Below, piece after piece: positions 1 to 16,506 of a stretch of 64,000 nt of DNA. The notes below the pieces were generated by a model. It saw nothing but the letters and a program-made list of their open reading frames with translations, was not told the DNA's origin and made no database searches. Both the position numbers and the translations under genes were made by a program. Numbering within the stretch: position 1 is the first letter of the stretch; every line of letters begins with the position of its first letter. This stretch comes from Escherichia coli (lineage in GTDB: Bacteria > Pseudomonadota > Gammaproteobacteria > Enterobacterales > Enterobacteriaceae), in the NCBI RefSeq assembly GCF_009931435.1, contig NZ_CP043414.1. The stretch is one strand, 5' to 3'.

Positions 1-3000
1 GCTGCTCCCAAAACGAACCCGTGGCGCACTGGCAGTAGTGTTGAACGCCCAGAGGGGGTCTTTGAATACCTCCATTCCATGCGCCGTGTTTTTACATAAC
101 GTAATGGCAGCAGATGCACTCTCTCCACGTCGACCCGCGCGGCCTGCACGCTGCAAATAATTTGCCGGAGCTGGAGGAACGTTGTTCATTGCCACCAAAC
201 TCATACCACCAATGTCCACCCCCATCTCCATGGTCGTGGAGCAGTTCAGCACATTAACTTTGCCTGACTTAAATTGTTTTTCATTAAACTGGTTCTGCTC
301 AGGCGTTCTCTGCGCAGAGTGTTCCTCCAGACGATACCAGCTATCTTTCAGGGCCAGTCGGTCGCTGCGAGTAGACCATAATCCTTCCTCGCGGGCATGT
401 TGAATCAGCGCATTACTTTCCAGCCACTCCAGACGTTCTTCTCGGGCGATTTCTCCACCACCAGACAAACGCCAGTGACGTACAGGAAGCTCAGGCATTT
501 CAATCAACACTGCTTTTTCAGGTGCAATTTCTTTGCTACCCGGCAAATACGGAGAGTATCCCAGTAACGTGACGTCTAACGCACGTCGAGTATAGGGGCA
601 ACGCCACACTTGCTTTGGACTGTAAAATTCAGCTTGTTGTTTAATATCCAGCTGATAACCCGACTCAAACTGACGTAAGCAGGGTCGAATTGCATCCCAG
701 ACCTCAATCATTAAGTGGTTAACTAACGATTTCCAGTGAGCCTGCTCAGGTTGTATTGCCGGAAAGACTGCAATTAATAGCTTAATGACCCGGTTATAAT
801 GGCGATCGCGTATTTGTGGCCAAAGTTGATCACGTTTCTGCCCTTTGTTTTTTTTATCTGGACCCTGCAGCATTTTTACCGGGAAACGAGCCCCCATCCA
901 GCGAGGGTATTGCTCGTTTTCGTAAAAAACGGCACTGTTTTCACGTATAAAGAAATCAAGAGTAATCTTCAATAAATTACGCCATTCCGCTAATTGCTTA
1001 TCGGGATCGGGTAATAATGTCTTCCAGTCCTGCGGGCAGGTTGTAACTTTATCAATAAATGGATAGTGAATGGCTACCAGACCCAGACTTTCGAGGGTCC
1101 AGGCATTTTTAGGGCGGCGACCAAACTCACTGTATAAACAAAAATCTGCAAACTGTTGTTTAGTAAGATCAAGCCCAGACAATTCTTTAAAACTGCCTCT
1201 CATTCTATCGGCAAGGTCCACACTGCCAACCAGCTGTTCAGACAGTGTTTGCCATGACATGGTTTTCTTCTGCTGATTGCCAGAGTTAGCCTGGAGTATT
1301 TGCATCGCTTCAGCATGATCCGGGCTTAAGGAACTCACCATCGGCTCGATAATTTTAAGTGCCTGAATGTCCGCCGGGCTAAGCTCTTCATTAGCAACCA
1401 TCGCTTTTTTCAGCGCGTCAATAGAGTTTTTTAAAGGAAGGATAGAAAACTGGGCAATAAAACTCTCTAACAATGCGCAGTGTGCCGGGCTGAGCTTTGC
1501 TGATGGCTCATTAATATTGGCCAGCTCCTGGTAGCAAAGAGCTCGCAACGTCGCTTTATCGGCATCCTGCTGTAAGCGGGCAGAAATGCGGGCAGTGCCC
1601 TGACGTGAATCCGTAAAGGTGAGCAGACGTCGACCATTAAACGGTCCTAACTGCTCTTCTCTTGTCTGCGGTAATGGTGAAAACTCCAGCAGAGTAGGAA
1701 TAATTTCATTTAAAAAAAAGGGCGCGCCAAGTCGAAGCGGACGGAATAAAGGATTATTTTTTCGTTGGGTGTCACCACAGCAAACACAAGCAAAGGAATT
1801 ATTACGTCCCTCACCTCGAGATTCCGGTCTTAACAGGTTTATTTCATAGTGCTTTTGCGCTTCACTATCAATTTTCCCCGCCGTCGTTTCTTCCAGTGAA
1901 ATGATATATTTTTCACCATCGCTCGCAATCAGACGATCAAATTGAGAGTTATTGTCTAATTCGTCGTTGTCTTCATCTTCAGAATAAACATCTACATCAA
2001 GAGCAAACTCATCCACTTCGGCAGCGGCGGGTTGCGCTACCAACCAGTTCGTTCCATCACCGCGCATCTCCTCTTTGGCAGACAAATAAGCTGAACCACA
2101 CCCGGAGCAACGTAAAACTTCAAATACCGGCGCACCACAGTCACAATATTGGCGCTGCTCAAACCATACCTGACCAAATGGCCAGTCACTCTGATTTAAT
2201 TCATGTGCTTTATGTGAGCATTGTTTGTTTGAACATGCCCATAGACCCGCCAGTGTTCTGATAAATCCATGCATACGTAATGGCGTAAAAGCCAGTTCAC
2301 CTTCTCGCGATCTTGCCATTAGATCGAGGAGTTGCAGTAGCTCACGGTGATTAATATCTGGCCAGGTTCTTCTGGCAACATTGAGCAACTCACTCAAACG
2401 TACTGCCTGCCGTCCGGGATGAGTTAACGCCTGACGCAATTGCTGGGCCACACGGTAATGACAAAGCTGTTGGTAAAGATCCTGAGGGCTCAGAGATTTA
2501 AGAGAAGTTAAAGATGTGGGGTATTCATGACGAATCAGCGACTCCGATACCCGCGGTATTTGTCGATAACCGCGAACCACTTTGACATCACGTTCTGTAA
2601 CGCCCGCGAGATCAGCGACAAATTTAGCAAGCTCCTTATTACCTTCAGGAGAGTCTTCACCAATAGTGGCAGAGGTCGCGATAATCTGCACAGGTTTATC
2701 TGTGCCGGGTCCAACATTGAAAGCCTGCATAACACGACGTAAAAGCAGCGCTAACTCAGCAGCCTGAGAACCAATATAACTATGGGCTTCATCCAGGACG
2801 ATATACTTTAACATCCCCTGAGACTTTTCGATGATTGGGGCATCTTTACGACGAATCAGCATATATTCCAGCATGGTGGTATTCGTCACCATGATGGAAG
2901 GTGGTGCTTCGTAAATGGCTTCCCGACTCAAAGCTTGTTCAGGTACTTTCAACTGATCTTCCTGAATTTCGTATTTGGTATGCCGGGTTTCGCCATTATA

Positions 3001-3543
3001 TAGCGCGAAGCGTATTTTCCCCTTAAATCCGCGCGTCCATTCGCGAAGCCGCTCCTGTTGACTGTTAATTAATGCATTTAACGGATACAAGAAAATAGCT
3101 TGTGTCCCTGTTAGTGACTGGCGGGTCGATTTTTGCTGACGAATAAGATCTTCCAGAACCGGTACCATAAAGCATTCTGTTTTCCCGGATCCCGTACCGC
3201 TGCTCACTAACAAGGATTTTTTGTCTTCCAGAATTGTTCGCCACGCAGTGAGTTGATGACGAAATGGCACTGGCGCTTTGCTCAATGCATCAACCAGCGG
3301 GCTGGAGATCAGCTTGTCCCGCAAATCCTCCATTGTTTCATCCGCAGGCATCCAGCCGAATGTACTTTCGAATACCGGGTCTGCAAGCAGTGACCCCTCC
3401 TGACCGGGAGGCTGAAAATATTGTGATTCCAGATAATGAGTCAACGACTTGCTCCGCAATGCCAACTGACTTACCACCGACCTCACCGCACGCTGATGAA
3501 GCTGATTTAGAAGTGGCGCATAATGCAGTTGCTGAACGTCCAT
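1..3543 (-). CDS. Large superfamily-2 DEAH helicase, C-terminus runs off the window (at least 1181 codons visible); candidate Druantia DruE-like
   Basis: Minus-strand frame appears uninterrupted from ATG at 3541-3543 to position 1 (checked by hand at several points; not in ORF track because no stop in window). Walker A SSGTGSGKT near 3179-3205, DEAH box VLDEAH at 2782-2799, motif V MEMGVDIGG near 205-231, motif VI QRAGRAGRRGE near 121-153. Cys clusters (FACVCCGD, CSNKQCSH, CDCGAPVFEVLRCSGCG) lie between about 1770 and 2260. Confidence 0.75.
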   Translation of the reverse strand, partial: MDVQQLHYAPLLNQLHQRAVRSVVSQLALRSKSLTHYLESQYFQPPGQEGSLLADPVFESTFGWMPADETMEDLRDKLISSPLVDALSKAPVPFRHQLTAWRTILEDKKSLLVSSGTGSGKTECFMVPVLEDLIRQQKSTRQSLTGTQAIFLYPLNALINSQQERLREWTRGFKGKIRFALYNGETRHTKYEIQEDQLKVPEQALSREAIYEAPPSIMVTNTTMLEYMLIRRKDAPIIEKSQGMLKYIVLDEAHSYIGSQAAELALLLRRVMQAFNVGPGTDKPVQIIATSATIGEDSPEGNKELAKFVADLAGVTERDVKVVRGYRQIPRVSESLIRHEYPTSLTSLKSLSPQDLYQQLCHYRVAQQLRQALTHPGRQAVRLSELLNVARRTWPDINHRELLQLLDLMARSREGELAFTPLRMHGFIRTLAGLWACSNKQCSHKAHELNQSDWPFGQVWFEQRQYCDCGAPVFEVLRCSGCGSAYLSAKEEMRGDGTNWLVAQPAAAEVDEFALDVDVYSEDEDNDELDNNSQFDRLIASDGEKYIISLEETTAGKIDSEAQKHYEINLLRPESRGEGRNNSFACVCCGDTQRKNNPLFRPLRLGAPFFLNEIIPTLLEFSPLPQTREEQLGPFNGRRLLTFTDSRQGTARISARLQQDADKATLRALCYQELANINEPSAKLSPAHCALLESFIAQFSILPLKNSIDALKKAMVANEELSPADIQALKIIEPMVSSLSPDHAEAMQILQANSGNQQKKTMSWQTLSEQLVGSVDLADRMRGSFKELSGLDLTKQQFADFCLYSEFGRRPKNAWTLESLGLVAIHYPFIDKVTTCPQDWKTLLPDPDKQLAEWRNLLKITLDFFIRENSAVFYENEQYPRWMGARFPVKMLQGPDKKNKGQKRDQLWPQIRDRHYNRVIKLLIAVFPAIQPEQAHWKSLVNHLMIEVWDAIRPCLRQFESGYQLDIKQQAEFYSPKQVWRCPYTRRALDVTLLGYSPYLPGSKEIAPEKAVLIEMPELPVRHWRLSGGGEIAREERLEWLESNALIQHAREEGLWSTRSDRLALKDSWYRLEEHSAQRTPEQNQFNEKQFKSGKVNVLNCSTTMEMGVDIGGMSLVAMNNVPPAPANYLQRAGRAGRRGESASAAITLCKNTAHGMEVFKDPLWAFNTTASAPRVRFGSS

Positions 3544-6500
3544 CAATGACATACTCCTGCTTGTTCAAAATAATATTGATAGATTACCCCTAATTGCTGT
3601 GGGGCTTGCTGATAGTGAAATTCAAAAAGCGCAGACAGTTGATGTATCAGGTTATTATCTTTTTGGGTTAACAGCGCTGCGACTAACATCAAATTAAAAC
3701 GTTTTTCAAGCCGTGAGTGATATTTATCTTCAATCCAAAGCTTATTAAAAACAGATTTTAACTCTGGAGTAATAGCACTAGACCAAAGTTCTTTAGGGAA
3801 GATACTGATACGCCCAAAGCTGTCGGGGTTCCTTAATAGCATCTGTTTAGCTTCATTAAACTGCTCACGACTAACAGTTGGCAATACATCACAACCGGTT
3901 GGTAGGCTCTCACTATATGTAAGTAACATATTCGCAATGGGAGCCAGCCGACGATCGATATGTGCACGATGGTTCATAAAAGCAATAAAGGGTTGCAATA
4001 TATGTAATGCTAATGTTTTATCGTTAATCTGTTTTTCCAGATAAGTCCAACATTTTTGGAAAACATCTTTCCAGATTGAAACGGGAATCCATCCCCATGA
4101 AAAGGGTAATTCTTCCTGTATATCATAAATCGTATCGCTATCACCAGAAAGACATGATGATATTAACAATTGAACAACCACGCGGTAATTACTCGAAATA
4201 CCTCTGAACAAGTCCAGATCCAGCAAGGATAAGCCATTATTCATTTTGTACTTCTTAATATACTCTGTTAATAAACAGCAATAATTTTGCAATGGGTTGT
4301 TATCTATTTCAAAAATTAGCTCATTAAAATTTTTTTTGCGCTGTTCTGGGTCTGCTTCGCATAGAGCATTTAGTAATAAATCATTTGTCTGCAATACAGG
4401 TAGCATCCATTTAATTACTGGTGCAATGCGAGCTGTACCATCAAGTTTTCCCACAATTAACCATGGACTATCCTGAACATTCAGAGCTGAAAGATCATAA
4501 GCAAATTCATCTTTTTTTAGCAATGATTTGTGTAAGCCAGGATCCTTAAGAGAAATAGCATCAACAACCAGTTCGTCTATTCTATTTGCAGGAAAAACAA
4601 CAGAATTTTTTATATCAACCAGCAACCCTTGATCGTGTTCAATAAAACTACCATCGTAGCGTTTAATATTGAGTGTTGCTTTATCCTTTCCAAATCTGTC
4701 AGAGTAAAAATCAACACATAATGTACTATTGCTGTTCCATGCACATGCCAGCATAGCATTTAGCAAATTATAGTTCTCATAAAGTGAAATTTGTTGTAAT
4801 TTGTCATTGCGTCCTGATAAAAGAGGAAGGTCGGCATGTAAATAACGGAATTTTTCAGCTACTGGATTTTCATCCAATAACTCGATATTAAGATATCCTC
4901 TTCCAGCACATGATATGGTTAATAACTCAGCATCTATTCCATGCAAATGTGCTATAGATGCCACACCATCAAAATGAACAGAACCATCATTAGTTACAAA
5001 TCGGCCACCGCTAACCGGCTTAGGTAATAATAGTTTAAGATTAGAACCATCTTTCCAGGAGACCCGTAAATCAACGGTATTTTCCAGCATCTGCGATGAA
5101 TTATAATAAATAGCACACTCGTTTTGTGAATAATCGGACTTAAGTGTTACTTTTTCATTGTTTGAATATTTATCAATTCTAGTATCCGTTATACCAGAAA
5201 GCATAATAATGCCTTGCTGAGCACTCTCAGGTATAATATTAATATCGAAGTCTGCTGGTAAAACTACAACTTTACCGCTAAATAAAACCTCATCATTAAC
5301 TATTCGCCGGACTTCTATCTGTCCTTTTGGCATTTCTGATGCGACAGAATACCAGGCATTGTTACCTGAACGAATGGAACGCCAAAAAAGTTCTTTCTCC
5401 GGTACAATGCCATATTGCAGATCCTTTTTCCAACCGATCTTCGGCCAGGCTCGATGGACAGGATAATCCGATTTAACCAGTTCAACTTCTGTCGATTTAA
5501 TATAATATTCAATCGCAGAATCATAAAGTTGCTGGGTGCGAATTGTACAAACAGCACCATCATGTAAAACAACGCTAAATACTCCACTTATTTTAGTTAA
5601 GCTGCGTTCACTGTTTTTCAGCAACCTTGGGATATCAAACTCACCTTCTCCACTAATATCTAAATGGCTATTTTTCGGTAGCGAAATAAACAGAGCATTT
5701 AGCCTGGAACTCACAGACCCCATACCGACAAGTTTTAGCTGCGATTCACTCTCATTCATCGCTTCAAAAACCCAGGGGAGTTCTTCAGTAAGTTCATAAC
5801 CGCCTTTTGGAATTGTGTGGCCTAACAGAATTGGACCTTCATGAAGCGACAACGAGATTTCGGCCATTGCATCTGCACCAGAGAGCTTTTGCATCGCAAT
5901 AGGTAATAACTCGACCCGCCAATCTTGCTGCTCATAACGGCTTAGCATTGCCAACCTTGCCCCGCCATTTCTCCATTTTCCTGAAATGATGAGTCGGGTC
6001 TGCTCCGGCTGAATATGGCATTCAAACAAAGAGGTTAACTGTTCTGTACGCATTGTGGCCGGGAATCGGAACCGGGCATCACAATACCAACTGTCATCAA
6101 CATCGACCCAGATTCTTTCAACCTGAAGACTACTTGCACTGCGTATTTCAGAAGATTGAGAAAGTAATCGCCTTACAATCTCTGCAGCATTCGCTTCGGG
6201 GAGAACGAGTGGAAGTTGAAGATGCCAGTCTGGAGAGAGCTTACGTAATGCAGAAACGGGATCACTGCTTTGAGGTGGATGCTCACTAAGTAATCGGCAG
6301 AGAGTCTCGCAGAATTCACCGGCTATTTCATAGACCAGTTCGTTTTGCATTGTGACAGGAATCGTATCGCCTAATTCTTGTGCAATTTTAGCGGCAGGAT
6401 ATTGAGATGCTTGCCCACGAAGCGCCTGATATATCCTTCTGAAATAGGTAATCAAATAACCGCTCTCATTTTCAATCATGCGGATAGGTAAACCACCTTC

Positions 6501-6902
6501 ACAAGCCAGTGTATGCAGATAACCCGAAGCTTGCCCCAGGTTTCTTATCTTTCTTTTCCAGTAGCGAATGCCATCATTAACCAGCTTCTGTCGATGAACA
6601 TACGGAACTTTCCAGTCAATAGAATCTAAAATTGTGTCCCATTTAGGGTGTCCGACCGTATGAGTCCGGCGGATAAACTCTGCGGCATATATGCTAAATA
6701 GAACATCGCTATAGGAAATGAATATCGTTCTTGGATAACTACGAGGGGCATATGTACGCAGTAGTTCTGCCAAACTTTCGTACTCTGTATCAGTACAACG
6801 GTAAGCATATAACGCCCGTCCATCAGCTCCGGATAATGAACGGCGACTAAAAAACATGTTAAGCCATTGCAAAAGTGGGTTAACTGGAGTTTTCACAAGC
6901 AA
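3543..6902 (-). CDS. Hypothetical 1119-aa protein, no recognisable motifs; upstream partner of the helicase (candidate DruH-like)
   Basis: Single long ORF in track; AT-rich; its TGA stop overlaps the helicase ATG (ATGA at 3541-3545), implying translational coupling. Confidence 0.6.
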   Translation of the reverse strand: MLVKTPVNPLLQWLNMFFSRRSLSGADGRALYAYRCTDTEYESLAELLRTYAPRSYPRTIFISYSDVLFSIYAAEFIRRTHTVGHPKWDTILDSIDWKVPYVHRQKLVNDGIRYWKRKIRNLGQASGYLHTLACEGGLPIRMIENESGYLITYFRRIYQALRGQASQYPAAKIAQELGDTIPVTMQNELVYEIAGEFCETLCRLLSEHPPQSSDPVSALRKLSPDWHLQLPLVLPEANAAEIVRRLLSQSSEIRSASSLQVERIWVDVDDSWYCDARFRFPATMRTEQLTSLFECHIQPEQTRLIISGKWRNGGARLAMLSRYEQQDWRVELLPIAMQKLSGADAMAEISLSLHEGPILLGHTIPKGGYELTEELPWVFEAMNESESQLKLVGMGSVSSRLNALFISLPKNSHLDISGEGEFDIPRLLKNSERSLTKISGVFSVVLHDGAVCTIRTQQLYDSAIEYYIKSTEVELVKSDYPVHRAWPKIGWKKDLQYGIVPEKELFWRSIRSGNNAWYSVASEMPKGQIEVRRIVNDEVLFSGKVVVLPADFDINIIPESAQQGIIMLSGITDTRIDKYSNNEKVTLKSDYSQNECAIYYNSSQMLENTVDLRVSWKDGSNLKLLLPKPVSGGRFVTNDGSVHFDGVASIAHLHGIDAELLTISCAGRGYLNIELLDENPVAEKFRYLHADLPLLSGRNDKLQQISLYENYNLLNAMLACAWNSNSTLCVDFYSDRFGKDKATLNIKRYDGSFIEHDQGLLVDIKNSVVFPANRIDELVVDAISLKDPGLHKSLLKKDEFAYDLSALNVQDSPWLIVGKLDGTARIAPVIKWMLPVLQTNDLLLNALCEADPEQRKKNFNELIFEIDNNPLQNYCCLLTEYIKKYKMNNGLSLLDLDLFRGISSNYRVVVQLLISSCLSGDSDTIYDIQEELPFSWGWIPVSIWKDVFQKCWTYLEKQINDKTLALHILQPFIAFMNHRAHIDRRLAPIANMLLTYSESLPTGCDVLPTVSREQFNEAKQMLLRNPDSFGRISIFPKELWSSAITPELKSVFNKLWIEDKYHSRLEKRFNLMLVAALLTQKDNNLIHQLSALFEFHYQQAPQQLGVIYQYYFEQAGVCH

Positions 6903-7113
6903 CCTGCCTTCCTTTGATACAATTCGTAACAGGTTACTATCATCATAAAAAAGCTCAACCCGATGAACTCGCTAAAAATGAGACAAATCATTTATATCTC
7001 GAAAAAACTTGTTACAATCATGAGCGCTACACCGAACTTAACCATATAAATTATGTGCGTTTTGTTTATTTTTTAAACAATTACAACTATCCATTATTTA
7101 CACAGGTATCAAA

Positions 7114-8766
7114 ATGTTAGCGCAGCTTTTTGAGCAGTTGTTTCAATCGATAGACTCTACACTGATCACCAATATTTTCATCTGGGCTGTTATATTCGTA
7201 TTTTTATCAGCGTGGTGGTGTGACAAAAAAAATATACATAGTAAGTTTAGAGAATATGCTCCAACCTTAATGGGGGCATTAGGTATTCTGGGTACTTTCA
7301 TTGGTATTATTATTGGGTTACTCAATTTTAATACTGAAAGTATTGATACCAGCATCCCCGTATTATTAGGCGGCCTAAAAACAGCATTCATTACAAGCAT
7401 TGTAGGTATGTTTTTTGCCATTTTATTTAATGGAATGGATGCTTTCTTTTTTGCCAATAAACGAAGTGCGTTAGCAGAAAATAACCCTGAATCTGTTACA
7501 CCTGAACATATCTATCATGAATTAAAAGAGCAGAACCAGACTCTGACTAAATTAGTCTTGGGTATTAACGGTGATAGTGAAGGTTCTCTTATTGCTCAAA
7601 TAAAATTACTACGTACTGAGATTAGCGATTCCTCGCAGGCACAATTAGCTAATCACACTCATTTCAGTAATAAGCTTTGGGAACAACTTGAACAATTTGC
7701 AGATCTAATGGCAAAAGGTGCTACAGAACAAATTATTGATGCTTTACGACAAGTCATTATTGATTTTAATGAAAATTTAACTGAACAGTTTGGTGAAAAC
7801 TTTAAAGCACTTGATGCCTCTGTAAAAAAACTTGTTGAGTGGCAGGAAAATTATAAAACGCAAGTTGAGCTGATGTCAGAACAATATCAACAAAGTGTCG
7901 AGTCTCTGGTTGAAACAAAAACTGCGGTTGCCGGGATTTGGGAAGAATGTAAAGAAATTCCTCTGGCTATGTCTGAACTGCGTGAAGTGCTTCAGGTGAA
8001 CCAACATCAAATCAGCGAACTCTCCCGCCATTTAGAAACCTTTGTCGCTATCCGCGATAAAGCTACAACCGTATTACCTGAAATACAGAACAAAATGGCT
8101 GAAGTGGGTGAACTGCTGAAATCCGGAGCTGCAAATGTTAGTGCATCTCTTGAGCAAACCAGCCAGCAAATACTTCTTAATGCAGATTCAATGCGCGTGG
8201 CCCTGGATGAAGGTACCGAAGGATTCAGACAATCGGTTACCCAAACACAACAAGCATTTGCCTCGATGGCACATGATGTCAGCAATTCCTCCGAAACTCT
8301 AACCAGCACGTTAGGTGAAACAATTACTGAAATGAAACAAAGTGGTGAAGAATTCCTGAAGTCACTAGAGTCGCACTCGAAAGAATTGCATAGAAATATG
8401 GAACAAAATACGACTAATGTAATTGATATGTTCAGTAAGACTGGTGAAAAGATTAACCATCAACTATCCAGTAATGCCGATAATATGTTTGATTCAATCC
8501 AGACATCATTTGATAAGGCAAGTGCAGGGCTGACTTCTCAAGTCAGAGAATCAATTGAAAAATTTGCTCTATCCATCAACGAGCAGTTACATGCTTTTGA
8601 GCAAGCAACTGAACGTGAGATGAACCGTGAAATGCAATCATTAGGTAATGCTCTGCTTTCAATCAGCAAAGGTTTTGTCGGTAACTATGAAAAACTTATT
8701 AAAGATTACCAAATAATTATGGGACAGTTACAAGCATTAATTTCTGCTAATAAACATCGAGGGTAA
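7114..8766 (+). CDS. zorA: MotA/ExbB/TolQ-like membrane protein with long coiled-coil tail; ZorA-like (Zorya)
   Basis: Three N-terminal hydrophobic helices (LITNIFIWAVIFVFLSAWW, LMGALGILGTFIGIIIGLL, IPVLLGGLKTAFITSIVGMFFAILF) followed by about 440 aa of Q/E/L-rich heptad-like sequence; first gene of a three-gene operon. Confidence 0.65.
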   Translation: MLAQLFEQLFQSIDSTLITNIFIWAVIFVFLSAWWCDKKNIHSKFREYAPTLMGALGILGTFIGIIIGLLNFNTESIDTSIPVLLGGLKTAFITSIVGMFFAILFNGMDAFFFANKRSALAENNPESVTPEHIYHELKEQNQTLTKLVLGINGDSEGSLIAQIKLLRTEISDSSQAQLANHTHFSNKLWEQLEQFADLMAKGATEQIIDALRQVIIDFNENLTEQFGENFKALDASVKKLVEWQENYKTQVELMSEQYQQSVESLVETKTAVAGIWEECKEIPLAMSELREVLQVNQHQISELSRHLETFVAIRDKATTVLPEIQNKMAEVGELLKSGAANVSASLEQTSQQILLNADSMRVALDEGTEGFRQSVTQTQQAFASMAHDVSNSSETLTSTLGETITEMKQSGEEFLKSLESHSKELHRNMEQNTTNVIDMFSKTGEKINHQLSSNADNMFDSIQTSFDKASAGLTSQVRESIEKFALSINEQLHAFEQATEREMNREMQSLGNALLSISKGFVGNYEKLIKDYQIIMGQLQALISANKHRG

Positions 8767-8772
8767 TCGATC

Positions 8773-9480
8773 ATGGATAAGATTATAGGGAAACAATTAC
8801 CTAAAAAAGATCAAGATAATGAACACTGGGTATCCATGTCAGACCTAATGGCAGGGCTGATGATGGTTTTTATGTTCATATCTATTGCTTATATGCACTA
8901 CGTACGTATTGAAAAAGAAAAAATTAAAGAAGTTGCCGTAGCCTACGAGAATGCTCAGTTACAGCTTTATAATGCTCTGGATATTGAGTTTGCAAAGGAT
9001 TTACAAGACTGGGATGCAGAGATCGATAAACAGACTCTGGAGGTTCGATTTAAATCACCGGATGTTTTATTTGGCTTAGGAAGCACAGAGCTAAAACCAA
9101 AGTTTAAACTCATTCTTGACGACTTCTTTCCTCGCTACCTAAAAGTTCTAGATAATTATCAGGACCATATTACTGAAGTCCGCATTGAAGGTCACACAAG
9201 TACTGACTGGACAGGAACAACGAATCCTGATATTGCTTATTTTAATAATATGGCACTATCACAAGGTCGTACACGTGCAGTATTACAATACGTTTATGAC
9301 ATAAAAAATATCGCGACACACCAACAATGGGTTAAAAGTAAATTTGCCGCAGTAGGTTATTCATCTGCACATCCCATTCTTGATAAAACCGGCAAGGAGG
9401 ATCCTAATCGCTCTCGTCGTGTCACCTTCAAAGTTGTAACAAATGCCGAATTGCAGATTAGAAAGATTATTCAGGAGTAA
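8773..9480 (+). CDS. zorB: MotB/OmpA-like peptidoglycan-anchoring protein; ZorB-like
   Basis: N-terminal TM segment (LMAGLMMVFMFISIAYM) and C-terminal OmpA/MotB-like region (NMALSQGRTRAVLQYV, NRSRRVTF); starts 6 nt after zorA stop. Confidence 0.65.
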   Translation: MDKIIGKQLPKKDQDNEHWVSMSDLMAGLMMVFMFISIAYMHYVRIEKEKIKEVAVAYENAQLQLYNALDIEFAKDLQDWDAEIDKQTLEVRFKSPDVLFGLGSTELKPKFKLILDDFFPRYLKVLDNYQDHITEVRIEGHTSTDWTGTTNPDIAYFNNMALSQGRTRAVLQYVYDIKNIATHQQWVKSKFAAVGYSSAHPILDKTGKEDPNRSRRVTFKVVTNAELQIRKIIQE

Positions 9481-9483
9481 GAG

Positions 9484-10587
9484 ATGAAATTATCTATCGA
9501 CATTTCAGAACTTATTCAATTAGGGAAGAAAATGTTACCAGAAGGAGTCGATTTTTTTCTGGATGAATCCCCTATTGACTTTGATCCTATAGATATTGAG
9601 TTATCCACGGGTAAAGAAGTTAGTATCGAAGATCTTGACCCTGGTAGCGGGCTTATCTCTTATCATGGCCGCCAGGTTCTTTTATATATTCGGGACCATT
9701 CAGGGCGTTATGATGCGGCTATCGTAGATGGCGAAAAAGGAAAACGTTTTCATATTGCCTGGTGCAGAACTCTTGATGAAATGCGCCATAAAAATCGATT
9801 TGAAAGGTATCATGCAACTAACCGCATAGATGGTTTATTCGAAATTGATGATGGTTCAGGTCGGAGCCAGGATGTTGATTTACGGGTATGTATGAATTGC
9901 CTCGAACGACTTAATTATAAAGGAAGTATTGATAAACAACGAAAAAGAGAGATTTTTAAATCATTCTCATTAAATGAGTTTTTTTCAGATTATAGTACCT
10001 GTTTTCGTCATATGCCTAAGGGTATCTATGACAAAACAAATAGTGGGTATGTCGAAAACTGGAAAGATATATCTAAATCAATACGAGAAAAGGCAAATTA
10101 TGTTTGTAATGATTGTGGCGTGAATTTATCAACCGCCAAAAACTTGTGCCATGTCCATCATAAAAATGGCATCAAATATGATAATCACCATGAAAACCTT
10201 CTTGTTCTGTGCAAGGATTGCCATCGAAAACAGCCCCTCCACGAAGGTATATTCGTTACCCAAGCTGAGATGGCTATCATTCAACGTTTACGTTCCCAAC
10301 AAGGGTTATTAAAAGCAGAATCCTGGAATGAAATATATGACCTGACTGATCCATCAGTGCATGGTGATATTAATATGATGCAACATAAAGGCTTTCAACC
10401 TCCTGTTCCTGGGTTAGATCTTCAAAACTCAGAACATGAAATTATTGCAACCGTAGAAGCTGCATGGCCAGGCCTTAAAATTGCAGTTAACCTTACTCCC
10501 GCCGAAGTCGAAGGATGGAGAATATATACCGTGGGTGAGCTGGTTAAAGAAATACAAACAGGAGCCTTTACGTCAGCAACGTTGTAA
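9484..10587 (+). CDS. zorE: HNH endonuclease-domain protein; ZorE-like (Zorya type II effector)
   Basis: C-terminal HNH signature CNDCGVNLSTAKNLCHVHHKNG...NHHENLLVLCKDCH; starts 3 nt after zorB stop. Confidence 0.6.
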   Translation: MKLSIDISELIQLGKKMLPEGVDFFLDESPIDFDPIDIELSTGKEVSIEDLDPGSGLISYHGRQVLLYIRDHSGRYDAAIVDGEKGKRFHIAWCRTLDEMRHKNRFERYHATNRIDGLFEIDDGSGRSQDVDLRVCMNCLERLNYKGSIDKQRKREIFKSFSLNEFFSDYSTCFRHMPKGIYDKTNSGYVENWKDISKSIREKANYVCNDCGVNLSTAKNLCHVHHKNGIKYDNHHENLLVLCKDCHRKQPLHEGIFVTQAEMAIIQRLRSQQGLLKAESWNEIYDLTDPSVHGDINMMQHKGFQPPVPGLDLQNSEHEIIATVEAAWPGLKIAVNLTPAEVEGWRIYTVGELVKEIQTGAFTSATL

Positions 10588-10796: not shown

Positions 10797-11406
10797 ATGA
10801 ATAAAGCAATAACGGTGCTTGCTATAATGATGGCTTCATTTTCCGTAAATGCGTATGTATTACCGGAAACGCCTGTGCCATTTAAAAGTGGTACCGGAGC
10901 AATTGATAACAACACTGTCTACATTGGTTTAGGTAGCGCAGGTACGGCATGGTACAAGCTGGAGAAACAGACCAAAGATAAAAAAATGGACAGCGTTAGC
11001 TGCATTTCCTGGTGGACCGAGAGATCAAGCAACTTCTGCATTTATTGATGGCAATCTGTATGTGTTTGACGGCATTGGCAAAAACAGTGAGGGCTTGACT
11101 CAGGTATTTAATGACGTTCACAAATACAACCTCAAAACCAATAGCTGGGTTAAATTGATGTCGCACGCGCCGATGGGCATGGCGGGTCATGTGACATTTG
11201 TACACAACGGCAAGGCTTATGTTACTGGCGGTGTTAACCAGAATATCTTCAATGGCTATTTTGAAGATCTTAACGAAGCTGGAAAAGATTCAGCGTACCG
11301 GTCACCGGAGAACTGGATGACGGTACTGCGAAGCAGTCATTTCAGTCGGGGGATGATTGTAGACAAATTTGTTGACGCTATTTTGCGGTTTTGGCGTGAA
11401 GGGTGA
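10797..11406 (+). pseudogene. nanM: N-acetylneuraminate epimerase (nanM/yjhT) N-terminal fragment, frameshifted and truncated
   Basis: ORFs 10797-11048 and 11062-11406 together carry the NanM signal peptide and first Kelch-like repeats (MNKAITVLAIMMASFSVNAYVLPETPVPFKSGTGAIDNNTVYIGLGSAGTAWYKL; FDGIGKNSEGLTQVFNDVHKYNLKTNSWVKLMSHAPMGMAGHVTFVHNGKAYVTGGVNQNIFNGYFEDLNEAGKD) but are split by a frameshift and end far short of the full-length protein. Confidence 0.6.
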
Positions 11407-11413
11407 GCGTTCA

Positions 11414-12064
11414 TTAATTTGATTTATTTGCATCCATCAACGCTTTTAACTGCTCCGGCGAAAACGGTGGTTTGCGTCGGTGCAACATCGCATGGCAATT
11501 AGGGCACACAGGAAGCAAATCATTAACTGGATCCAGCTGGTAATTCTCTTTAATGGCTGAAAGCGGCACCAGGTGATGCACATGGATAAAGCCTTCAGCG
11601 ATATCACCATAGATCTTCACCAGATCAACGCCGCATACGTTGCACTGGCATCCATGATGTTCGACCGCTTTATCTCGGGCCTTTTTATCGCGTTCATAGC
11701 GGTTTACTGTCACCTTTATCGCCGCACCTTCAACGTATGTCTCCTGCGACGGCAACTCATCCGGGAACAGAACGTCGGCTATGGGAGCCGCAGCGGCTTT
11801 ATCCTGATGAATATGAAATCCCTGCTCTATGAGTAGTTTGACGCATTTAGATTTTATTCCGCCGGTGAAATCCGCAGGGGTAAATTGCGTCCCCGTCATC
11901 AATGTCGCTGCGATGCCAGCAATCGCCTTCGAGGGGTAACGTCGGCCATGATATTCAATCTCATACAACCGCGCAGGCTGGAACTGATGAGTTTCTCCCG
12001 CATCCCATAAATGGATAGCTTCGATGATATACCGCCGCGGAAGATGATCAGGGAGTTTATTCAT
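11414..12064 (-). CDS. HNH endonuclease with about 140-aa N-terminal domain of unknown function
   Basis: C-terminal HHGCQCNVCG...HVHHLVPLS...NDLLPVCPNCHAMLH (zinc-finger HNH); N-terminal region has no motif I recognise. Confidence 0.7.
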   Translation of the reverse strand: MNKLPDHLPRRYIIEAIHLWDAGETHQFQPARLYEIEYHGRRYPSKAIAGIAATLMTGTQFTPADFTGGIKSKCVKLLIEQGFHIHQDKAAAAPIADVLFPDELPSQETYVEGAAIKVTVNRYERDKKARDKAVEHHGCQCNVCGVDLVKIYGDIAEGFIHVHHLVPLSAIKENYQLDPVNDLLPVCPNCHAMLHRRKPPFSPEQLKALMDANKSN

Positions 12065-12143
12065 GGAGAATGTCCTTATACGTTCTCAGAACAGGCAGCA
12101 AAAAAACAAATGAGATCAAGGTAATATATCTTCACTTGCAGGC

Positions 12144-13073
12144 TTGAACAGCAGAAAATTTGCGAGCATGATCGCAATTATTTCACTGCCAGGGATATCA
12201 ATGGCTTCCAGTAAATCGCTACAGCAGGCAATTGCCAATATAAAAATCTGGCACAAGGGTGAACAGCGCGCGCCGCATAAGCCATTGTTATTGCTATACG
12301 TATTAGCGGGATACCTGAATGGACATCCGCGCCTTTTCGATTATGGCTCGGAAATCTACGAACCTCTGCACAGTTTACTGGAACGTTTTGGGCCACAGCG
12401 TTCACAGTACCGACCTGATATGCCGTTCTGGCGATTACAAGGCGACGGATTCTGGCAATTACACAATGCCGAACTTTGCTCAACAGCAGGGAGTAGCCGA
12501 CAACCGCCAGTGAAGGAACTGACCGAACACCGCGTTGCAGGCGGTTTCGATGAACAGCACTATGCCCTGGTAATCGGCAATAAAAAACTCATCAATACCC
12601 TGGCGCAACAGATACTCGAAGCGCACTTCACCGAGAGCATTCAGGAAGAAATTGCTGACGAGCTGGGTTTTGATCTCCAGCAAATCCGTAAACAGCGCGA
12701 CCCGTTATTTCGCAAACTTGTATTGCGCGCATATAACTACCAGTGCGCGATATGTGGCTTTAATATGCGCCACGATGACACCACCGTCGCACTGGAAGCA
12801 GCGCATATAAAATGGAAACAGCACGGCGGTCCTTGTGAAATTCCTAATGGCCTGGCGCTTTGTGCAATACACCATAAAGCCTTTGATAAAGGATCGATTG
12901 GCCTGGATGAAAATATGCGGGTACTGGTCTCGGATGCGGTAAACGGCGGAGGGATCGTTGAGAAACTATTCTGGGATTTTGACGGGAAAACTATTGCGTT
13001 ACCACAGGTGCGTAAAAATTACCCTTTTGAGGGGTTTGTGGAGTGGCATCGAAAAGAGGTTTTTAGGGGGTGA
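12144..13073 (+). CDS. HNH endonuclease with about 190-aa N-terminal domain of unknown function (start may be a downstream Met, e.g. 12201)
   Basis: HNH signature CAICGF...AAHIKWKQHGGP...NGLALCAIHHKAFDKG; divergent from the 216-aa HNH gene across a 79-bp spacer. Confidence 0.7.
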   Translation: MNSRKFASMIAIISLPGISMASSKSLQQAIANIKIWHKGEQRAPHKPLLLLYVLAGYLNGHPRLFDYGSEIYEPLHSLLERFGPQRSQYRPDMPFWRLQGDGFWQLHNAELCSTAGSSRQPPVKELTEHRVAGGFDEQHYALVIGNKKLINTLAQQILEAHFTESIQEEIADELGFDLQQIRKQRDPLFRKLVLRAYNYQCAICGFNMRHDDTTVALEAAHIKWKQHGGPCEIPNGLALCAIHHKAFDKGSIGLDENMRVLVSDAVNGGGIVEKLFWDFDGKTIALPQVRKNYPFEGFVEWHRKEVFRG

Positions 13074-13114: not shown

Positions 13115-13297
13115 TCAGTGCAGGATCTTGCCGCTAGTTTACAACTCGCCTTCGATAGCGGCGCAAAACGAGTTCTGTTGCCGATATCCTCGGCTATGGA
13201 TATTCCAACAGTTCCGGCAGAGTTGTTTACCAAGTTTCAGGTAAGTTTTTACTCAGAACCGGTTGATGCGGTTTATAAGGCGCTGGATGTGAATTAA
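13115..13297 (+). pseudogene. C-terminal remnant of a Lon-like protease gene (possibly BrxL-like), no start codon
   Basis: Open frame with no Met translates to SVQDLAASLQLAFDSGAKRVLLPISSAMDIPTVPAELFTKFQVSFYSEPVDAVYKALDVN, resembling the extreme C-terminus of Lon-family proteases (compare Lon AAHRGGIKTVLIPFENKRDLEEIP...). Confidence 0.4.
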
Positions 13298-13628: not shown

Positions 13629-13672
13629 AGTTATTCACTGATTATATTATCAATAATATAATCAGTGAATAA
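13629..13672 (-). terminator. Perfect 20-bp inverted repeat immediately downstream of the 682-aa gene, followed on the minus strand by a T-run; likely intrinsic terminator
   Basis: gttattcactgattatatta / tcaa / taatataatcagtgaataac; minus-strand downstream sequence ctctaatttttttaatg. Confidence 0.5.
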
Positions 13673-13695
13673 CATGGACTATATAATAAATTGCT

Positions 13696-15744
13696 CTAAT
13701 CATTTCCCTTACGAATATATGGGCCAAAAGCCCAAGAATCATAATAAGGGTGATGGACTAATTTTTCATTAAATCGAACACTATAAGTTAATTTTTTTAT
13801 ATTTTTACGTACAGCATTAATACTGGGCAAAGAGGAAAGATAATCTATAAACTTATCGATAGTGATTTTCCCTTCGCAACACTCAAACCCATCAATGATA
13901 TTTTTCGCCATTTTTCCATTTTCATTTGTTTGATATATCACTCCAGGTATTCGTTGAAAAAAACTAGATAATGCATATTTGTCCGCTACATATGTATCAT
14001 CCACATGATATTTCCCACCGAGCATAGTTGTAGTAACAATAAGCTTATACACACCTTTGGGTTGCCATGTTGATGGTAGTTCGAATTCTTTAATGATCAC
14101 ATCAAGATGATTAAGATAATGTTCAGAAATTCGATTTATTTGTTGAAAATAAGAACGCATAAATTTATTATTATGATCATGTATTAATGAGCTATCTCCA
14201 ACGATGTTACACACTTGCTGATAGTACTTACCATAATATATTGGTTGACCATTTGATTTTAGTTCTGTAAAAATCAAACAATCATCCAGGAGAATCACGC
14301 AATCGCACTGATAATTAGCATGAGCATCAATTGGAGAAGCTTTAATCCCCGCATCACGAACTTGTTTTATAAATTGTTGCTCATGAAATCGCCCTTTACT
14401 TGCTTGAGAAATTTTTTTGGAACCAAATAATGACATTAGAGAGCGAGTCACTGAGCTATTTGCTATTAATGCAGGCATTAAGCATAAACCGTCCATACAG
14501 GGAATAAATGGGCAATCATTAAGATCATGTGATTTTGAATTGAAGGTAAAATAATCTATCAGTTTTTTTGCTGCATCTGCTGCAATCCCCTTACGTTGAA
14601 AGAATGATAACCAACTCTCACGGCTTTTTATGACCAGCCAGCGATCCAACTGTAGGGGTATAGGTTTTGTCGATGAAAATCTTTTGCTCATTTCTTCTTT
14701 AGATAACTCGACTAAACATTGATAAGCGTGCACCCAATTAAATAATGATATATTCCCATATTCTTCATGAAGGTCATCAGGAGACATATTTTCCAACTCG
14801 CTTAAATGAAATGAGCTAAAAACGCCATCAGAATTTAAGTAAGATGGCATATGATCCTTTACCCAACTATTTAGATGAAAATGTTTGTTACTAAATTCAT
14901 GAACTTCGCTATATAGATGTGACGCTCTCATCATTAGTCTATTTCTTGCAATCTCATAATCTCGGTATAAACAAAAACTATCAACCTCAAGAGAGTAAAT
15001 GTTATTATCCAATTTTGTAAATACTGCACTACTTAGTCTGAAAAAGTCTCTTACTCTGCTTAATGAGTCAAAAACATTCCACTCATTAAGGTACCCTCCC
15101 ATTGAAAGCAAGGTTTGTTTATTCACACAAGAAGTTAGTTTCAATGGCCCATGAGTCCGTAAATAAGAAAATATTCTTCCGGTGTAATTGGCTACCTCAT
15201 CAAATGCCCTATCGATAACTCGAAAATATTCGATATCAGGTTCAGCATGAATATTAATATTTTCAGAAACGATAAATAATGGAAAAATCCTCTTCATTTT
15301 TTTAGGATCATTGACCACAACCAAGGATGATAATGATGATAAAAACATCTCACAAAACATGATGAGATTAAGTATTAATGCATGTGATTTTTTTGTATTT
15401 TTACGCCAAATACCAGCACATTTTGCAGCCCCAAAGAAAGAATTATTTATATCATGCATAATTTTACATTGACTCTCGAACTCAGAGATTAGTTCAATGT
15501 TATCAGGAAATGAGTTTACTAGCTCATTAATACATTTTTTGAATGTATTGTTATACTCAACTTCAGTCTGAACTGAAAATCTATTATAATAGATGGAAGA
15601 TATTCTCAGCACATCCAAGGCGATATCTATACTAATATCATCTCTTTTTATGTACTCACAAAAAAAAGAACAAAACTGTTTCGGGTCGTTAGCAAGATTA
15701 CTAATTCTAGTGGTATCATAAACTTTTTCCATTTTTCCATACAT
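13696..15744 (-). CDS. Hypothetical 682-aa protein, very AT-rich, no confident domain assignment
   Basis: Single long ORF flanked by more than 600 bp of AT-rich non-coding DNA on each side; possible PD-(D/E)xK-like motif CDCVILLDDCLIFTELK in the C-terminal third (weak). Confidence 0.6.
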   Translation of the reverse strand: MYGKMEKVYDTTRISNLANDPKQFCSFFCEYIKRDDISIDIALDVLRISSIYYNRFSVQTEVEYNNTFKKCINELVNSFPDNIELISEFESQCKIMHDINNSFFGAAKCAGIWRKNTKKSHALILNLIMFCEMFLSSLSSLVVVNDPKKMKRIFPLFIVSENINIHAEPDIEYFRVIDRAFDEVANYTGRIFSYLRTHGPLKLTSCVNKQTLLSMGGYLNEWNVFDSLSRVRDFFRLSSAVFTKLDNNIYSLEVDSFCLYRDYEIARNRLMMRASHLYSEVHEFSNKHFHLNSWVKDHMPSYLNSDGVFSSFHLSELENMSPDDLHEEYGNISLFNWVHAYQCLVELSKEEMSKRFSSTKPIPLQLDRWLVIKSRESWLSFFQRKGIAADAAKKLIDYFTFNSKSHDLNDCPFIPCMDGLCLMPALIANSSVTRSLMSLFGSKKISQASKGRFHEQQFIKQVRDAGIKASPIDAHANYQCDCVILLDDCLIFTELKSNGQPIYYGKYYQQVCNIVGDSSLIHDHNNKFMRSYFQQINRISEHYLNHLDVIIKEFELPSTWQPKGVYKLIVTTTMLGGKYHVDDTYVADKYALSSFFQRIPGVIYQTNENGKMAKNIIDGFECCEGKITIDKFIDYLSSLPSINAVRKNIKKLTYSVRFNEKLVHHPYYDSWAFGPYIRKGND

Positions 15745-16421: not shown

Positions 16422-16506
16422 TGGTGCCGAAGGCCGGACTCGAACCGGCACGTATTTCTACGGTTGATTTTGAATCAACTGCGTCTACCGATTTCGCCAC
16501 TTCGGC
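16422..16506 (-). tRNA. leuX: tRNA-Leu (anticodon CAA), leuX
   Basis: Minus-strand sequence GCCGAAGTGGCGAAATCGGTAGACGCAGTTGATTCAAAATCAACCGTAGAAATACGTGCCGGTTCGAGTCCGGCCTTCGGCACCA, with T-loop GGTTCGAGTCC and 3' CCA; matches recalled leuX. Confidence 0.9.

Follow-up and report, generated by a model that had tools for sequence, protein, structure and literature searches.

ScoMcrA of Streptomyces coelicolor is organised as head-SBD-SRA-HNH, SBD being a sulfur-binding domain (PDB 5ZMM; Liu et al. 2018, PMC6224610). In that study pocket roles were assigned to residues H116, R117, Y164 and P165; the R117 position was reported to be lysine in most homologues, Y164 was reported to vary across the family, and the Y164M substitution gave stronger binding. 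The head domain was described there as flexibly attached and of unknown function, which is the sole published statement on it (PMC6224610), and a search of a full-text collection turned up no paper that names the ScoMcrA_N domain family. EcoWI acts by itself, cutting GpsAAC/GpsTTC DNA at N7/N6 as a homodimer (Lutz et al. 2020, PMC7461809). It cuts both strands in vitro and leaves many single-strand nicks beside double-strand breaks, EcoWI alone blocks transformation by a dnd+ plasmid in vivo, and phosphorothioate (PT)-dependent restriction or cleavage has been demonstrated for EcoWI and four homologues (PMC7461809).

The window analysed here, a stretch of 64,000 nucleotides of Escherichia coli (contig NZ_CP043414.1), carries two divergent HNH genes on opposite strands, gene A and gene B (Table 1). 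An earlier, sequence-only reading had proposed such a pair, and both open reading frames were recovered with an HNH domain in each. Its length for gene A (216 aa) stands, whereas its 309 aa for gene B corresponds to a longer reading frame (12144-13073, +) that opens with TTG. The true start is almost certainly the ATG at 12201, giving 290 aa. RefSeq gives 290 aa for gene B in a 98.6%-identical locus, and its homologues are 289-291 aa long with the N-terminus M-x-S-S-K. In E. coli W the putative upstream extension is not in frame with the gene, in Klebsiella it is interrupted by an in-frame TAG, and the TTG at 12144 sits within a conserved -35-like TTGAxx hexamer. With this start the spacer is 136 bp and not the 79 bp given originally.

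Together with zorE (9484-10587; NF041791, 694 bits), the third HNH gene of the region, genes A and B fall inside 3.6 kb, in agreement with the earlier count of three HNH nucleases within about 4 kb. The cassette adjoins Zorya II and Druantia III in an E. coli defence island and is ~3.3 kb away from the tRNA gene leuX; nanM fragments separate it from Zorya, and a BrxL 3' remnant lies directly downstream of gene B. Type II Zorya (ZorA2, ZorB2, ZorE) is complete in the window without A and B, and the pair is not part of the Zorya operon; the neighbours of the Citrobacter and Klebsiella cassettes described below are likewise not Zorya-related.

Table 1 Features of the divergent HNH gene pair and its spacer, in window coordinates
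Feature	Position	Strand	Description
Gene A	11414..12064	-	ATG ORF, 216 aa; ScoMcrA_N (head)-linker-HNH, candidate type IV restriction endonuclease
Gene A residues 1-90	11795..12064	-	ScoMcrA N-terminal 'head' domain (PF26345)
Gene A residues 141-197	11474..11644	-	HNH core and CxxC...CxxC zinc ribbon
25-codon ORF	11337..11414	-	ATG overlapping gene A stop (TAATG)
Divergent intergenic region	12065..12200		136 bp, predicted to contain both promoters; five-species alignment
-35-like hexamer TTGAAC for gene B	12144..12149	+	Includes the TTG once read as start
Perfect palindrome TTGCGA-GCATGA-TCGCAA	12160..12177		Candidate operator; overlaps -10-like hexamer, 23 bp upstream of the gene B ATG
Gene B	12201..13073	+	290 aa, 33.1 kDa; SBD-HNH phosphorothioated-DNA-dependent restriction endonuclease, EcoWI family
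Gene B residues 1-165	12201..12695	+	DNA sulfur-binding domain (PF26340)
Gene B residues 182-236	12744..12908	+	HNH_2 catalytic core

The N-terminal domains, which the first reading had been unable to assign, were identified through PDB sequence search and precomputed Pfam labels as the ScoMcrA head (PF26345) in gene A and the sulfur-binding domain (PF26340) in gene B. A Pfam-A scan gave no N-terminal assignment for either gene, the scanned release predating PF26345 and PF26340. The size originally estimated for both domains, 140-190 aa, is appropriate for gene B (~165 aa) but not for gene A, which consists of a folded N-terminal domain of ~90 aa, a low-confidence linker of ~30 aa and an HNH domain of the McrA type. 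These assignments support the idea that both products are restriction-like HNH nucleases carrying a type IV kind of targeting domain at the N-terminus, and the SBD-like fold suggested among the candidates proved correct for gene B, as indicated by NF045808 and the ScoMcrA SBD match.

Gene B matched the NCBIfam model NF045808 over its full length with 435.9 bits (cut-off 180), residues 25-308 in the 309-aa numbering covering profile positions 2-284 of 284, and its product is named an SBD-HNH PT-dependent enzyme by the NCBI annotation pipeline and RefSeq. Analysis by phmmer matched the N-terminus to the ScoMcrA SBD structures 5zmo, 5zmm and 5zmn (E 1.5e-6), the SBD corresponding by alignment to ScoMcrA residues 95-230, with H26, K27, M74 and P75 aligned to H116, R117, Y164 and P165. 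The catalytic domain was detected as Pfam HNH_2 (E 1.3e-9). A protein of E. coli W is 76% identical and has the same HNH and zinc residues (C182, C185, H202, N216, C221, H224 and H225). This protein is probably EcoWI, judging from the name of the strain and from the protein's calculated mass, 33.41 kDa against the 33.4 kDa published for EcoWI (PMC7461809); no accession or sequence is given in the EcoWI papers, supplement included. At 76% identity, the gene B allele of the window is expected to share the PT specificity. Gene B is an allele of an already known, characterised and commercially used enzyme family (EcoWI), and is nothing new in kind. The E. coli SBD homologue of Liu et al. 2018 was excluded as gene B, since its critical proline at residue 482 indicates a longer, different protein.

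For gene A, the PDB sequence search matched the N-terminus to ScoMcrA residues 29-93, and the HNH region, detected by Pfam HNH with E 1.2e-4, aligned to EcoKMcrA (6ghc residues 199-269). The HNH residues C141, C144, H163/H164, C187, C190, H191 and H195 are invariant in an alignment of 36 homologues, and gene A holds all 38 family-invariant residues, with F28, Y34, Y43, K46 and F66 as invariant positions in the head; the invariance of the catalytic and zinc residues across the family argues for a working nuclease. A test of EcoKMcrA family membership found no McrA-type N-terminal 5mC-binding domain in gene A. Searching the PDB by Foldseek with the full-length gene A model returned no match at E <= 0.001, the best being ScoMcrA and EcoKMcrA. 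RefSeq annotation of a 99.4%-identical locus places an 'HNH endonuclease' at this position. Against PADLOC, gene A gave weak matches to type IV enzymes that fall precisely into two parts, head (profile positions 29-92 in a 560-position model) and HNH. Because weak type IV matches were the only ones for both A and B, the 2023 release does not list either as a named defence system. Homologues of gene A amounted to 7056 matches at E<=1e-3, a number that includes, in a proportion not separated, proteins sharing the HNH domain only. Among the matches listed, PF26345 was present in all near-full-length relatives and PF01844 in most, and the N-terminal domains of 38 HNH-only relatives, one genome per species, were almost all without Pfam assignment.

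The head-domain profile matched 2957 protein clusters. In a sample of 60, the head was partnered with HNH (23), EVE (13), NOV_C (7), AAA_5 (6) and nSTAND3 (5), and with SAD_SRA, AspBHI_N, MrcB_N and Mrr_N once each; this partner set, which includes AAA domains of the McrB-like sort, is typical of type IV restriction enzymes. No SBD was found in 150 best representatives of head-domain proteins, the SBD profile being narrow and mainly of enterobacterial sequences. The head of gene A is most likely a DNA-targeting or modified-DNA-reading module. It may alternatively serve not as a modification reader but as a general DNA-binding, oligomerisation or regulatory module, since it is frequent in proteins that already have an EVE, SRA or SBD reader. 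From its architecture and domain company, gene A is a candidate type IV restriction enzyme, with a predicted enzymatic activity.

The divergent A/B cassette was also found in four species of Citrobacter and three of Klebsiella, with a spacer of 140-180 bp and in at least six different flanking contexts, so that the conserved pairing raised earlier as a point to check extends to at least seven other species. The identity matrices of A and B co-vary (r = 0.87, Mantel p = 2e-4), which could result from both genes following the species tree. Another E. coli island holds a further, diverged A'/B' pair whose members are 4 kb apart, in Enterobacter and Klebsiella aerogenes an Mrr_N-HNH gene stands in tandem with gene B, and SymE toxin genes adjoin the cassette in several genomes. 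Among the matches listed, with one genome per species, A-B adjacency was not seen outside one enterobacterial clade. The constant co-occurrence expected of an obligate two-gene system was not observed, as both genes occur solo. Gene B is alone in Salmonella, Enterobacter hormaechei and E. coli W, in the last of these after leuX and an integrase, and gene A is alone in Pantoea, Shewanella, Escherichia sp. ESNIH1, UBA7338 and Pseudescherichia, where its neighbourhoods in Pantoea and Shewanella contain a GmrSD_N-domain gene, a NACHT/STAND NTPase gene and a SymE toxin gene. On two contigs of Citrobacter amalonaticus a frameshifted gene A lies beside an intact gene B.

Among 5426 E. coli genomes, window-type alleles were full-length for gene B in 1706 and for gene A in 1238. 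K-12-like genomes retain eight codons of A, annotated as ythB, and a frameshifted fragment of B, and other E. coli strains carry IS1-truncated copies of the locus. Comparison of translations identified the 25-codon ORF adjoining gene A, a hypothetical protein in the annotation of the 98.6%-identical locus, as kin of the 3' part of K-12 ythB. By this sequence evidence the K-12 small protein YthB is a deletion scar of gene A, showing that gene A expression signals are active in E. coli.

Phage homing endonucleases were considered and rejected as an identity for A and B. PHROG matches of gene A were limited to residues ~114-206, a generic HNH core (best E 1e-9), the neighbours are chromosomal or defence-related, and in the loci examined gene A was not in prophage or intron/intein contexts. 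The contrary outcome named in the sequence-only reading, in which the two genes would be confined to this strain and match prophage homing endonucleases, was not what we found: the genes co-occur outside the strain, and no phage homing-endonuclease family was matched beyond the HNH core.

Within the spacer, the TTGA of the -35-like hexamer is invariant in 10/10 regions upstream of gene B and is followed after 17 bp by a -10-like CATGAT (12167-12172), a putative gene B promoter. The palindrome that overlaps it occurs once in the window, against 0.01 occurrences expected by chance. It was found upstream of gene B in 16 loci, solo-B loci included, and the five-species alignment and the B-upstream regions show it nearly invariant where the remaining spacer diverges. 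E. coli W, Salmonella and Enterobacter MGH 24 retain it before a B gene that lacks a neighbouring A, and so it is not an A-specific operator; an operator shared between A and B is ruled out by the same retention at solo B genes. The palindrome may represent an operator that travels with gene B regardless of A. To our knowledge no E. coli regulator consensus fits it; its nearest likeness is presumably the CRP-like TGNGA-N6-TCNCA, to which we attach no evidential weight.

These observations are probably best explained by two autonomous modification-dependent nucleases, co-inherited as a small defence cassette and not forming an obligate two-component system. By homology, the SBD of gene B would accommodate the Rp sulfur of phosphorothioated DNA in a hydrophobic pocket formed by H26, K27, M74 and P75, and the C-terminal HNH/zinc-ribbon domain of a homodimer would make a double-strand cut at a distance of a few base pairs, leading to destruction of incoming plasmid or phage DNA from dnd-type hosts. 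In gene A, an HNH/zinc ribbon joined by the flexible ~30-residue linker to the ~90-residue head would target a second class of foreign DNA. The two would be inherited together and transcribed divergently from the 136-bp spacer, each functional without the other. The occurrence of each gene solo and the ability of EcoWI to work alone favour this reading, so that of the two options left by the earlier proposal, a two-component module or two independent enzymes, the latter is preferred, with co-inheritance added.

Cooperation between the two products is unlikely in our estimate, although some of the evidence is compatible with a functional partnership too. In such a scheme B would detect PT-DNA, and A would be recruited or activated, through the head domain or HNH-HNH contacts, to complete or amplify cleavage, in the manner of a split ScoMcrA. 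The N-terminal domains of A and B correspond to adjacent ScoMcrA segments (29-93 and 95-230), fused there as head and SBD; the adjacency is conserved in Escherichia, Citrobacter and Klebsiella despite different flanks; A and B co-diverge; a paralogous A'/B' pair is found in the second E. coli island; and B is elsewhere in tandem with another small-domain gene carrying an A-type HNH, the Mrr_N-HNH gene. The many single-strand nicks in the EcoWI paper (PMC7461809) point in the same direction. However, EcoWI alone restricts dnd+ plasmids and cuts both strands as a homodimer (PMC7461809), B is solo in E. coli W, Salmonella and E. hormaechei and A in at least five taxa, some C. amalonaticus contigs have a pseudogene A next to an intact B, and among the matches listed the adjacency was not seen beyond one enterobacterial clade. 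The head domain is moreover partnered with many non-PT readers, so that a PT link is not specifically supported by the ScoMcrA fusion. The more specific proposal that A and B are partners as a split ScoMcrA, with the head needed for full PT-DNA restriction or extending restriction to a feature of dnd-carrying elements, is distinctly unlikely. If this partnership were true, B would have an alternative, exchangeable partner in the Mrr_N-HNH gene of Klebsiella aerogenes and Enterobacter, and SBD-HNH enzymes would form the core of a modular multi-HNH system.

The decay of the locus in many E. coli, with ythB and a frameshifted B in K-12-like genomes and IS1 truncations elsewhere, and the BrxL 3' remnant just downstream of B would be consistent with a functionally irrelevant relic, whose genes became neighbours through the build-up of defence genes at the leuX/nan hotspot. 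We consider this very unlikely: in the window both ORFs are full length with every invariant residue present, and three genera share this orientation and spacer amid different flanking genes, a pattern that random accumulation would not yield. Most improbable of all is that gene A is a DNA-binding regulator, for example of B via the palindrome, with the head as a sequence-specific DNA-binding module, or a selfish or toxic HNH element such as an abortive-infection toxin. The strongly conserved palindrome in the shared spacer and the SymE toxin genes beside the cassette in several genomes are compatible with such roles, but the palindrome persists upstream of B without an adjacent A, none of the HNH catalytic or zinc residues varies within the family, and the setting is neither prophage nor intron/intein, with PHROG matches to the generic HNH core only.

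Current views of restriction systems would not be overturned by these findings. Gene A encodes an uncharacterised protein of a kind already known; its family of small head-HNH proteins is widespread, with thousands of homologue matches. Its targeting domain recurs in ~3000 protein clusters with classic type IV reader and motor domains, and the conservation of the A-B cassette and the fusion seen in ScoMcrA offer a handle for assigning the function of the head.

Compared with known systems, gene B has the same two-domain architecture as EcoWI (290 and 291 aa, respectively; Lutz et al. 2020, PMC7461809). The candidate EcoWI protein of E. coli W has an identical HKP...MPFW pocket and identical CxxC/CxxH HNH motifs, and its gene has the same upstream palindrome. 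The two proteins differ, however, at 24% of residues, so that the context preference and cleavage distance of EcoWI cannot be transferred to gene B as established, and the E. coli W gene is without an A partner whereas gene B is paired. ScoMcrA is a single 560-aa chain with an SRA domain, whereas here head and SBD are on two proteins, neither of which has a SAD_SRA hit, and each protein has its own HNH domain, of Pfam type HNH in A and HNH_2 in B. EcoKMcrA (E. coli e14 McrA, PDB 6GHC) and gene A are both small two-domain proteins that combine a reader with an HNH domain. As is seen in type IV clusters, several modification-dependent nucleases with different readers adjoin in a variable chromosomal region, with type I R-M genes and symE nearby. 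Such clusters resemble the E. coli 'immigration control region' (McrBC and Mrr, with hsd), from which the A/B pair differs in being a fixed divergent unit that moves between contexts and genera.

The divergent HNH ORFs described in the sequence-only reading, of 216 and 309 aa around a 79-bp spacer, are both present, but the length of the right-hand ORF and the spacer required correction. The right-hand ORF, gene B, can be read from TTG 12144 as 309 aa, but its true start is almost certainly the ATG at 12201, giving 290 aa and therefore a spacer of 136 bp to the left-hand gene, gene A. The RefSeq annotation of a locus with 98.6% identity also gives gene B 290 aa, and homologues from nine species are 289-291 aa long and begin M-x-S-S-K. 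The sequence upstream of this ATG is a conserved non-coding element; in E. coli W it does not share the reading frame of the start, and in Klebsiella it contains an in-frame TAG.

Coordinates of the HNH gene pair and surrounding features in the window
Feature	Position	Strand	Remarks
DruE fragment and DruH (Druantia III)	within 1-10587		DruE runs off left window end
zorA2, zorB2, zorE	within 1-10587		complete Zorya II
nanM 5' fragments	10797-11406		directly downstream of Druantia III/Zorya II genes
25-codon ORF	11337-11414	-	overlaps gene A stop codon (TAATG)
Gene A	11414-12064	-	ATG start, 216 aa
Palindrome TTGCGA-N6-TCGCAA	12160-12177		perfect; upstream of gene B
Gene B	12201-13073	+	ATG start, 290 aa
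BrxL gene piece	13120-13296	+	last 58 codons; just downstream of gene B
Inverted repeat	13630-13673		AT-rich, 44 bp
682-aa ORF	13696-15744	-	between cassette and leuX; low-GC DNA (~33%)
leuX tRNA-Leu(CAA)	16422-16506		
GC dip	32001-33000		GC 0.38
GC dip	36001-37000		GC 0.32

Both N-terminal domains, which the sequence-only reading had left unassigned, align with parts of ScoMcrA. Residues 1 to ~165 of gene B align with crystal structures of the ScoMcrA sulfur-binding domain (E 1.5e-6), and the sulfur-pocket residues H116, R117, Y164 and P165 correspond in the alignment to H26, K27, M74 and P75. Lys is the usual state among homologues at the R117 position, while the Y164 position is variable and a Y164M mutant binds better (PMC6224610). 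The C-terminus is an HNH_2 domain with a CxxC/CxxH zinc site. The protein matches NCBIfam NF045808 ('phosphorothioated DNA-binding restriction endonuclease', also its RefSeq product name) from end to end with 435.9 bits, against a cut-off of 180 bits. In E. coli W, a 291-aa homologue directly follows leuX and an integrase; its computed mass of 33.41 kDa matches the 33.4 kDa stated for EcoWI, which makes it the probable EcoWI protein. It shares 76% identity with gene B. EcoWI is a dimer that cleaves GpsAAC/GpsTTC DNA at N7/N6, and on its own blocks transformation by dnd+ plasmids (PMC7461809). Gene B is thus predicted, with high confidence, to encode a phosphorothioate-dependent enzyme of the EcoWI family.

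Residues 24-87 of gene A align to ScoMcrA residues 29-93 (5zmm, E 3.5e-5), identifying this segment as the ScoMcrA 'head' domain. The corresponding newer Pfam family, PF26345 (ScoMcrA_N), is present in every near-full-length gene A homologue listed. A full-length structure model contains two folded domains joined by a low-confidence linker of ~30 residues; the C-terminal one is a McrA-type HNH domain with a four-cysteine zinc ribbon, which aligns with residues 199-269 of EcoKMcrA. The catalytic and zinc ligands are invariant across 36 homologues, down to 43% identity. The ScoMcrA paper says of the head only that it is small and flexibly tethered and that its function is not known (PMC6224610), and a full-text literature search found no paper naming the ScoMcrA_N family. 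A head-domain profile search yielded 2957 clusters (50% identity), whose proteins range from 100 to >1500 aa. Pfam analysis of 60 of these clusters revealed HNH (23), EVE (13), HNH_2 (10), NOV_C (7), McrB-like AAA_5 (6), nSTAND3 (5) and DUF3427 (2) as partners, with SAD_SRA, AspBHI_N, MrcB_N, Mrr_N and NUDIX once each. Such partners are typical of modification-dependent restriction and support classing gene A among candidate type IV enzymes; with moderate confidence, we predict it to be a restriction enzyme of ScoMcrA_N-HNH architecture. In the same 60 proteins the head often occurs beside a recognised reader rather than in its place, so that it could act as an additional reader, bind DNA in general, or have a role in oligomerisation or regulation. 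Among the matches listed from other phyla, the A-type HNH module is joined to many N-terminal domains without a Pfam name.

The sequence-only reading had asked whether the two genes co-occur elsewhere, and had left open a two-component module or two independent enzymes. The genes are likewise arranged divergently, around a spacer of 140-180 bp, in at least seven other species with differing flanking genes: Citrobacter farmeri (type VI secretion genes), C. amalonaticus (a PrpR-like regulator), Citrobacter sp. Cu233 and FP75, Klebsiella sp. R445 (Wadjet-type genes), K. quasipneumoniae (a GH43 gene) and K. aerogenes (a type I R-M system, with a third gene, Mrr_N-HNH, after B). Among the matches listed, the A homologue in adjacent pairs always has at least 64% identity; this suggests that the two genes came together once, in an ancestor, and were not assembled repeatedly. 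Over nine pairs, the pairwise identities of A co-vary with those of B (r = 0.87, Mantel p = 2e-4 for the eight adjacent ones), which shows that the genes are inherited together, although a common species history could by itself yield this pattern; A evolves faster, with 64-73% identity to the window gene versus 78-82% for B.

A true partnership, in effect a 'split ScoMcrA' with the head on A and the sulfur-binding domain on B, would provide a first function for the head domain. We consider it unlikely, as each gene is found alone, which favours autonomy. B lacks A in E. coli W, Salmonella and E. hormaechei, and A lacks B in Pantoea stewartii, Shewanella algae, Escherichia sp. ESNIH1, an uncultured enterobacterium and Pseudescherichia vulneris. 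Two C. amalonaticus contigs carry a frameshifted A beside an intact B, and full-length window-type alleles occur in 1706 (B) and 1238 (A) of 5426 complete E. coli genomes. In Enterobacter sp. MGH 24 (L018, 2264-3908), A is absent and B is followed after 10 bp by a gene joining an Mrr_N-like winged helix to an A-type HNH domain; in K. aerogenes (L100, 4260-6636) such a gene follows B in tandem and, together with A, makes up a three-HNH cluster. Diverged copies of A (59% identity, in 565 contigs) and B (51%) lie 4 kb apart on a second, mobilisable E. coli island (integrase, AbiEi, TraI_2, ArdC), so some E. coli have two sets. On balance, the pair more plausibly represents two modification-dependent HNH nucleases that act autonomously and are inherited together as a cassette.

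Within the spacer, strong conservation is confined to a stretch immediately before gene B, which comprises TTGAxx, a variable 17-bp gap and TTGCGAGCAT(G/C/T)ATCGCAA(T/A)TAT. The palindrome here occurs once in the window, versus 0.01 expected by chance, and overlaps CATGAT, a -10-like element 17 bp downstream of a -35-like hexamer. It was found upstream of B in 16 loci, including all sampled solo B genes except that of E. hormaechei (a one-base variant), and is near-invariant in Escherichia, Salmonella, Citrobacter, Klebsiella and Enterobacter, with or without A. From this conservation we infer a putative sigma-70 promoter with an overlapping candidate operator, which would belong to B and not to the pair.

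In E. coli the cassette usually lies beside nanC-nanM-nanS, and in a K-12-like genome (L107) both genes are scars. Gene A has lost ~635 bp internally, fusing its first 8 codons (MNKLPAHL) to the 25-codon ORF at its 3' side. The product is the 33-codon K-12 small protein YthB (MNKLPAHLSRQNCKIAS...; L107 4820-4918), which is thus a deletion scar of gene A. Chromosomally tagged YthB has been seen on immunoblots (Weaver et al., bioRxiv 10.1101/511675), indicating that the promoter and ribosome-binding site of gene A are active in E. coli. Gene B is frameshifted, and a 75-bp deletion between two ACAGCAG repeats removed its -10 element, palindrome and first codons.

The window covers the variable side of leuX, followed by core genes (ahr, idnK, idnD, idnO...) as in E. 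coli W; two further GC dips lie within otherwise core chromosome. The window lacks nanS and the 3' portion of nanM, usually found ahead of gene A. The BrxL (BREX Lon-like protease) piece matches TIGR02653 positions 618-675 of 675 (E 8e-24) and is left over from a BREX system that has been lost. The 682-aa ORF had no NCBIfam or PHROG match and a marginal PADLOC match to PDC-M29B (E 1.4e-3); related genomes annotate it as 'hypothetical protein', and it may be an uncharacterised defence gene. Just past its 3' end lies the near-perfect inverted repeat (20 pairs, 4-nt loop, then a T-run), terminator-like on the minus strand and with promoter-like hexamers on both strands. The clustering of three HNH genes including zorE, also pointed out from sequence, was borne out (within 3.6 kb). 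It is a coincidence of defence-island packing: the Zorya II operon to which ZorE belongs is complete, and elsewhere the pair is found without Zorya.

Compared with known systems, gene B is a new allele of an already known enzyme, and gene A adds an uncharacterised protein to an architectural class that is itself known.
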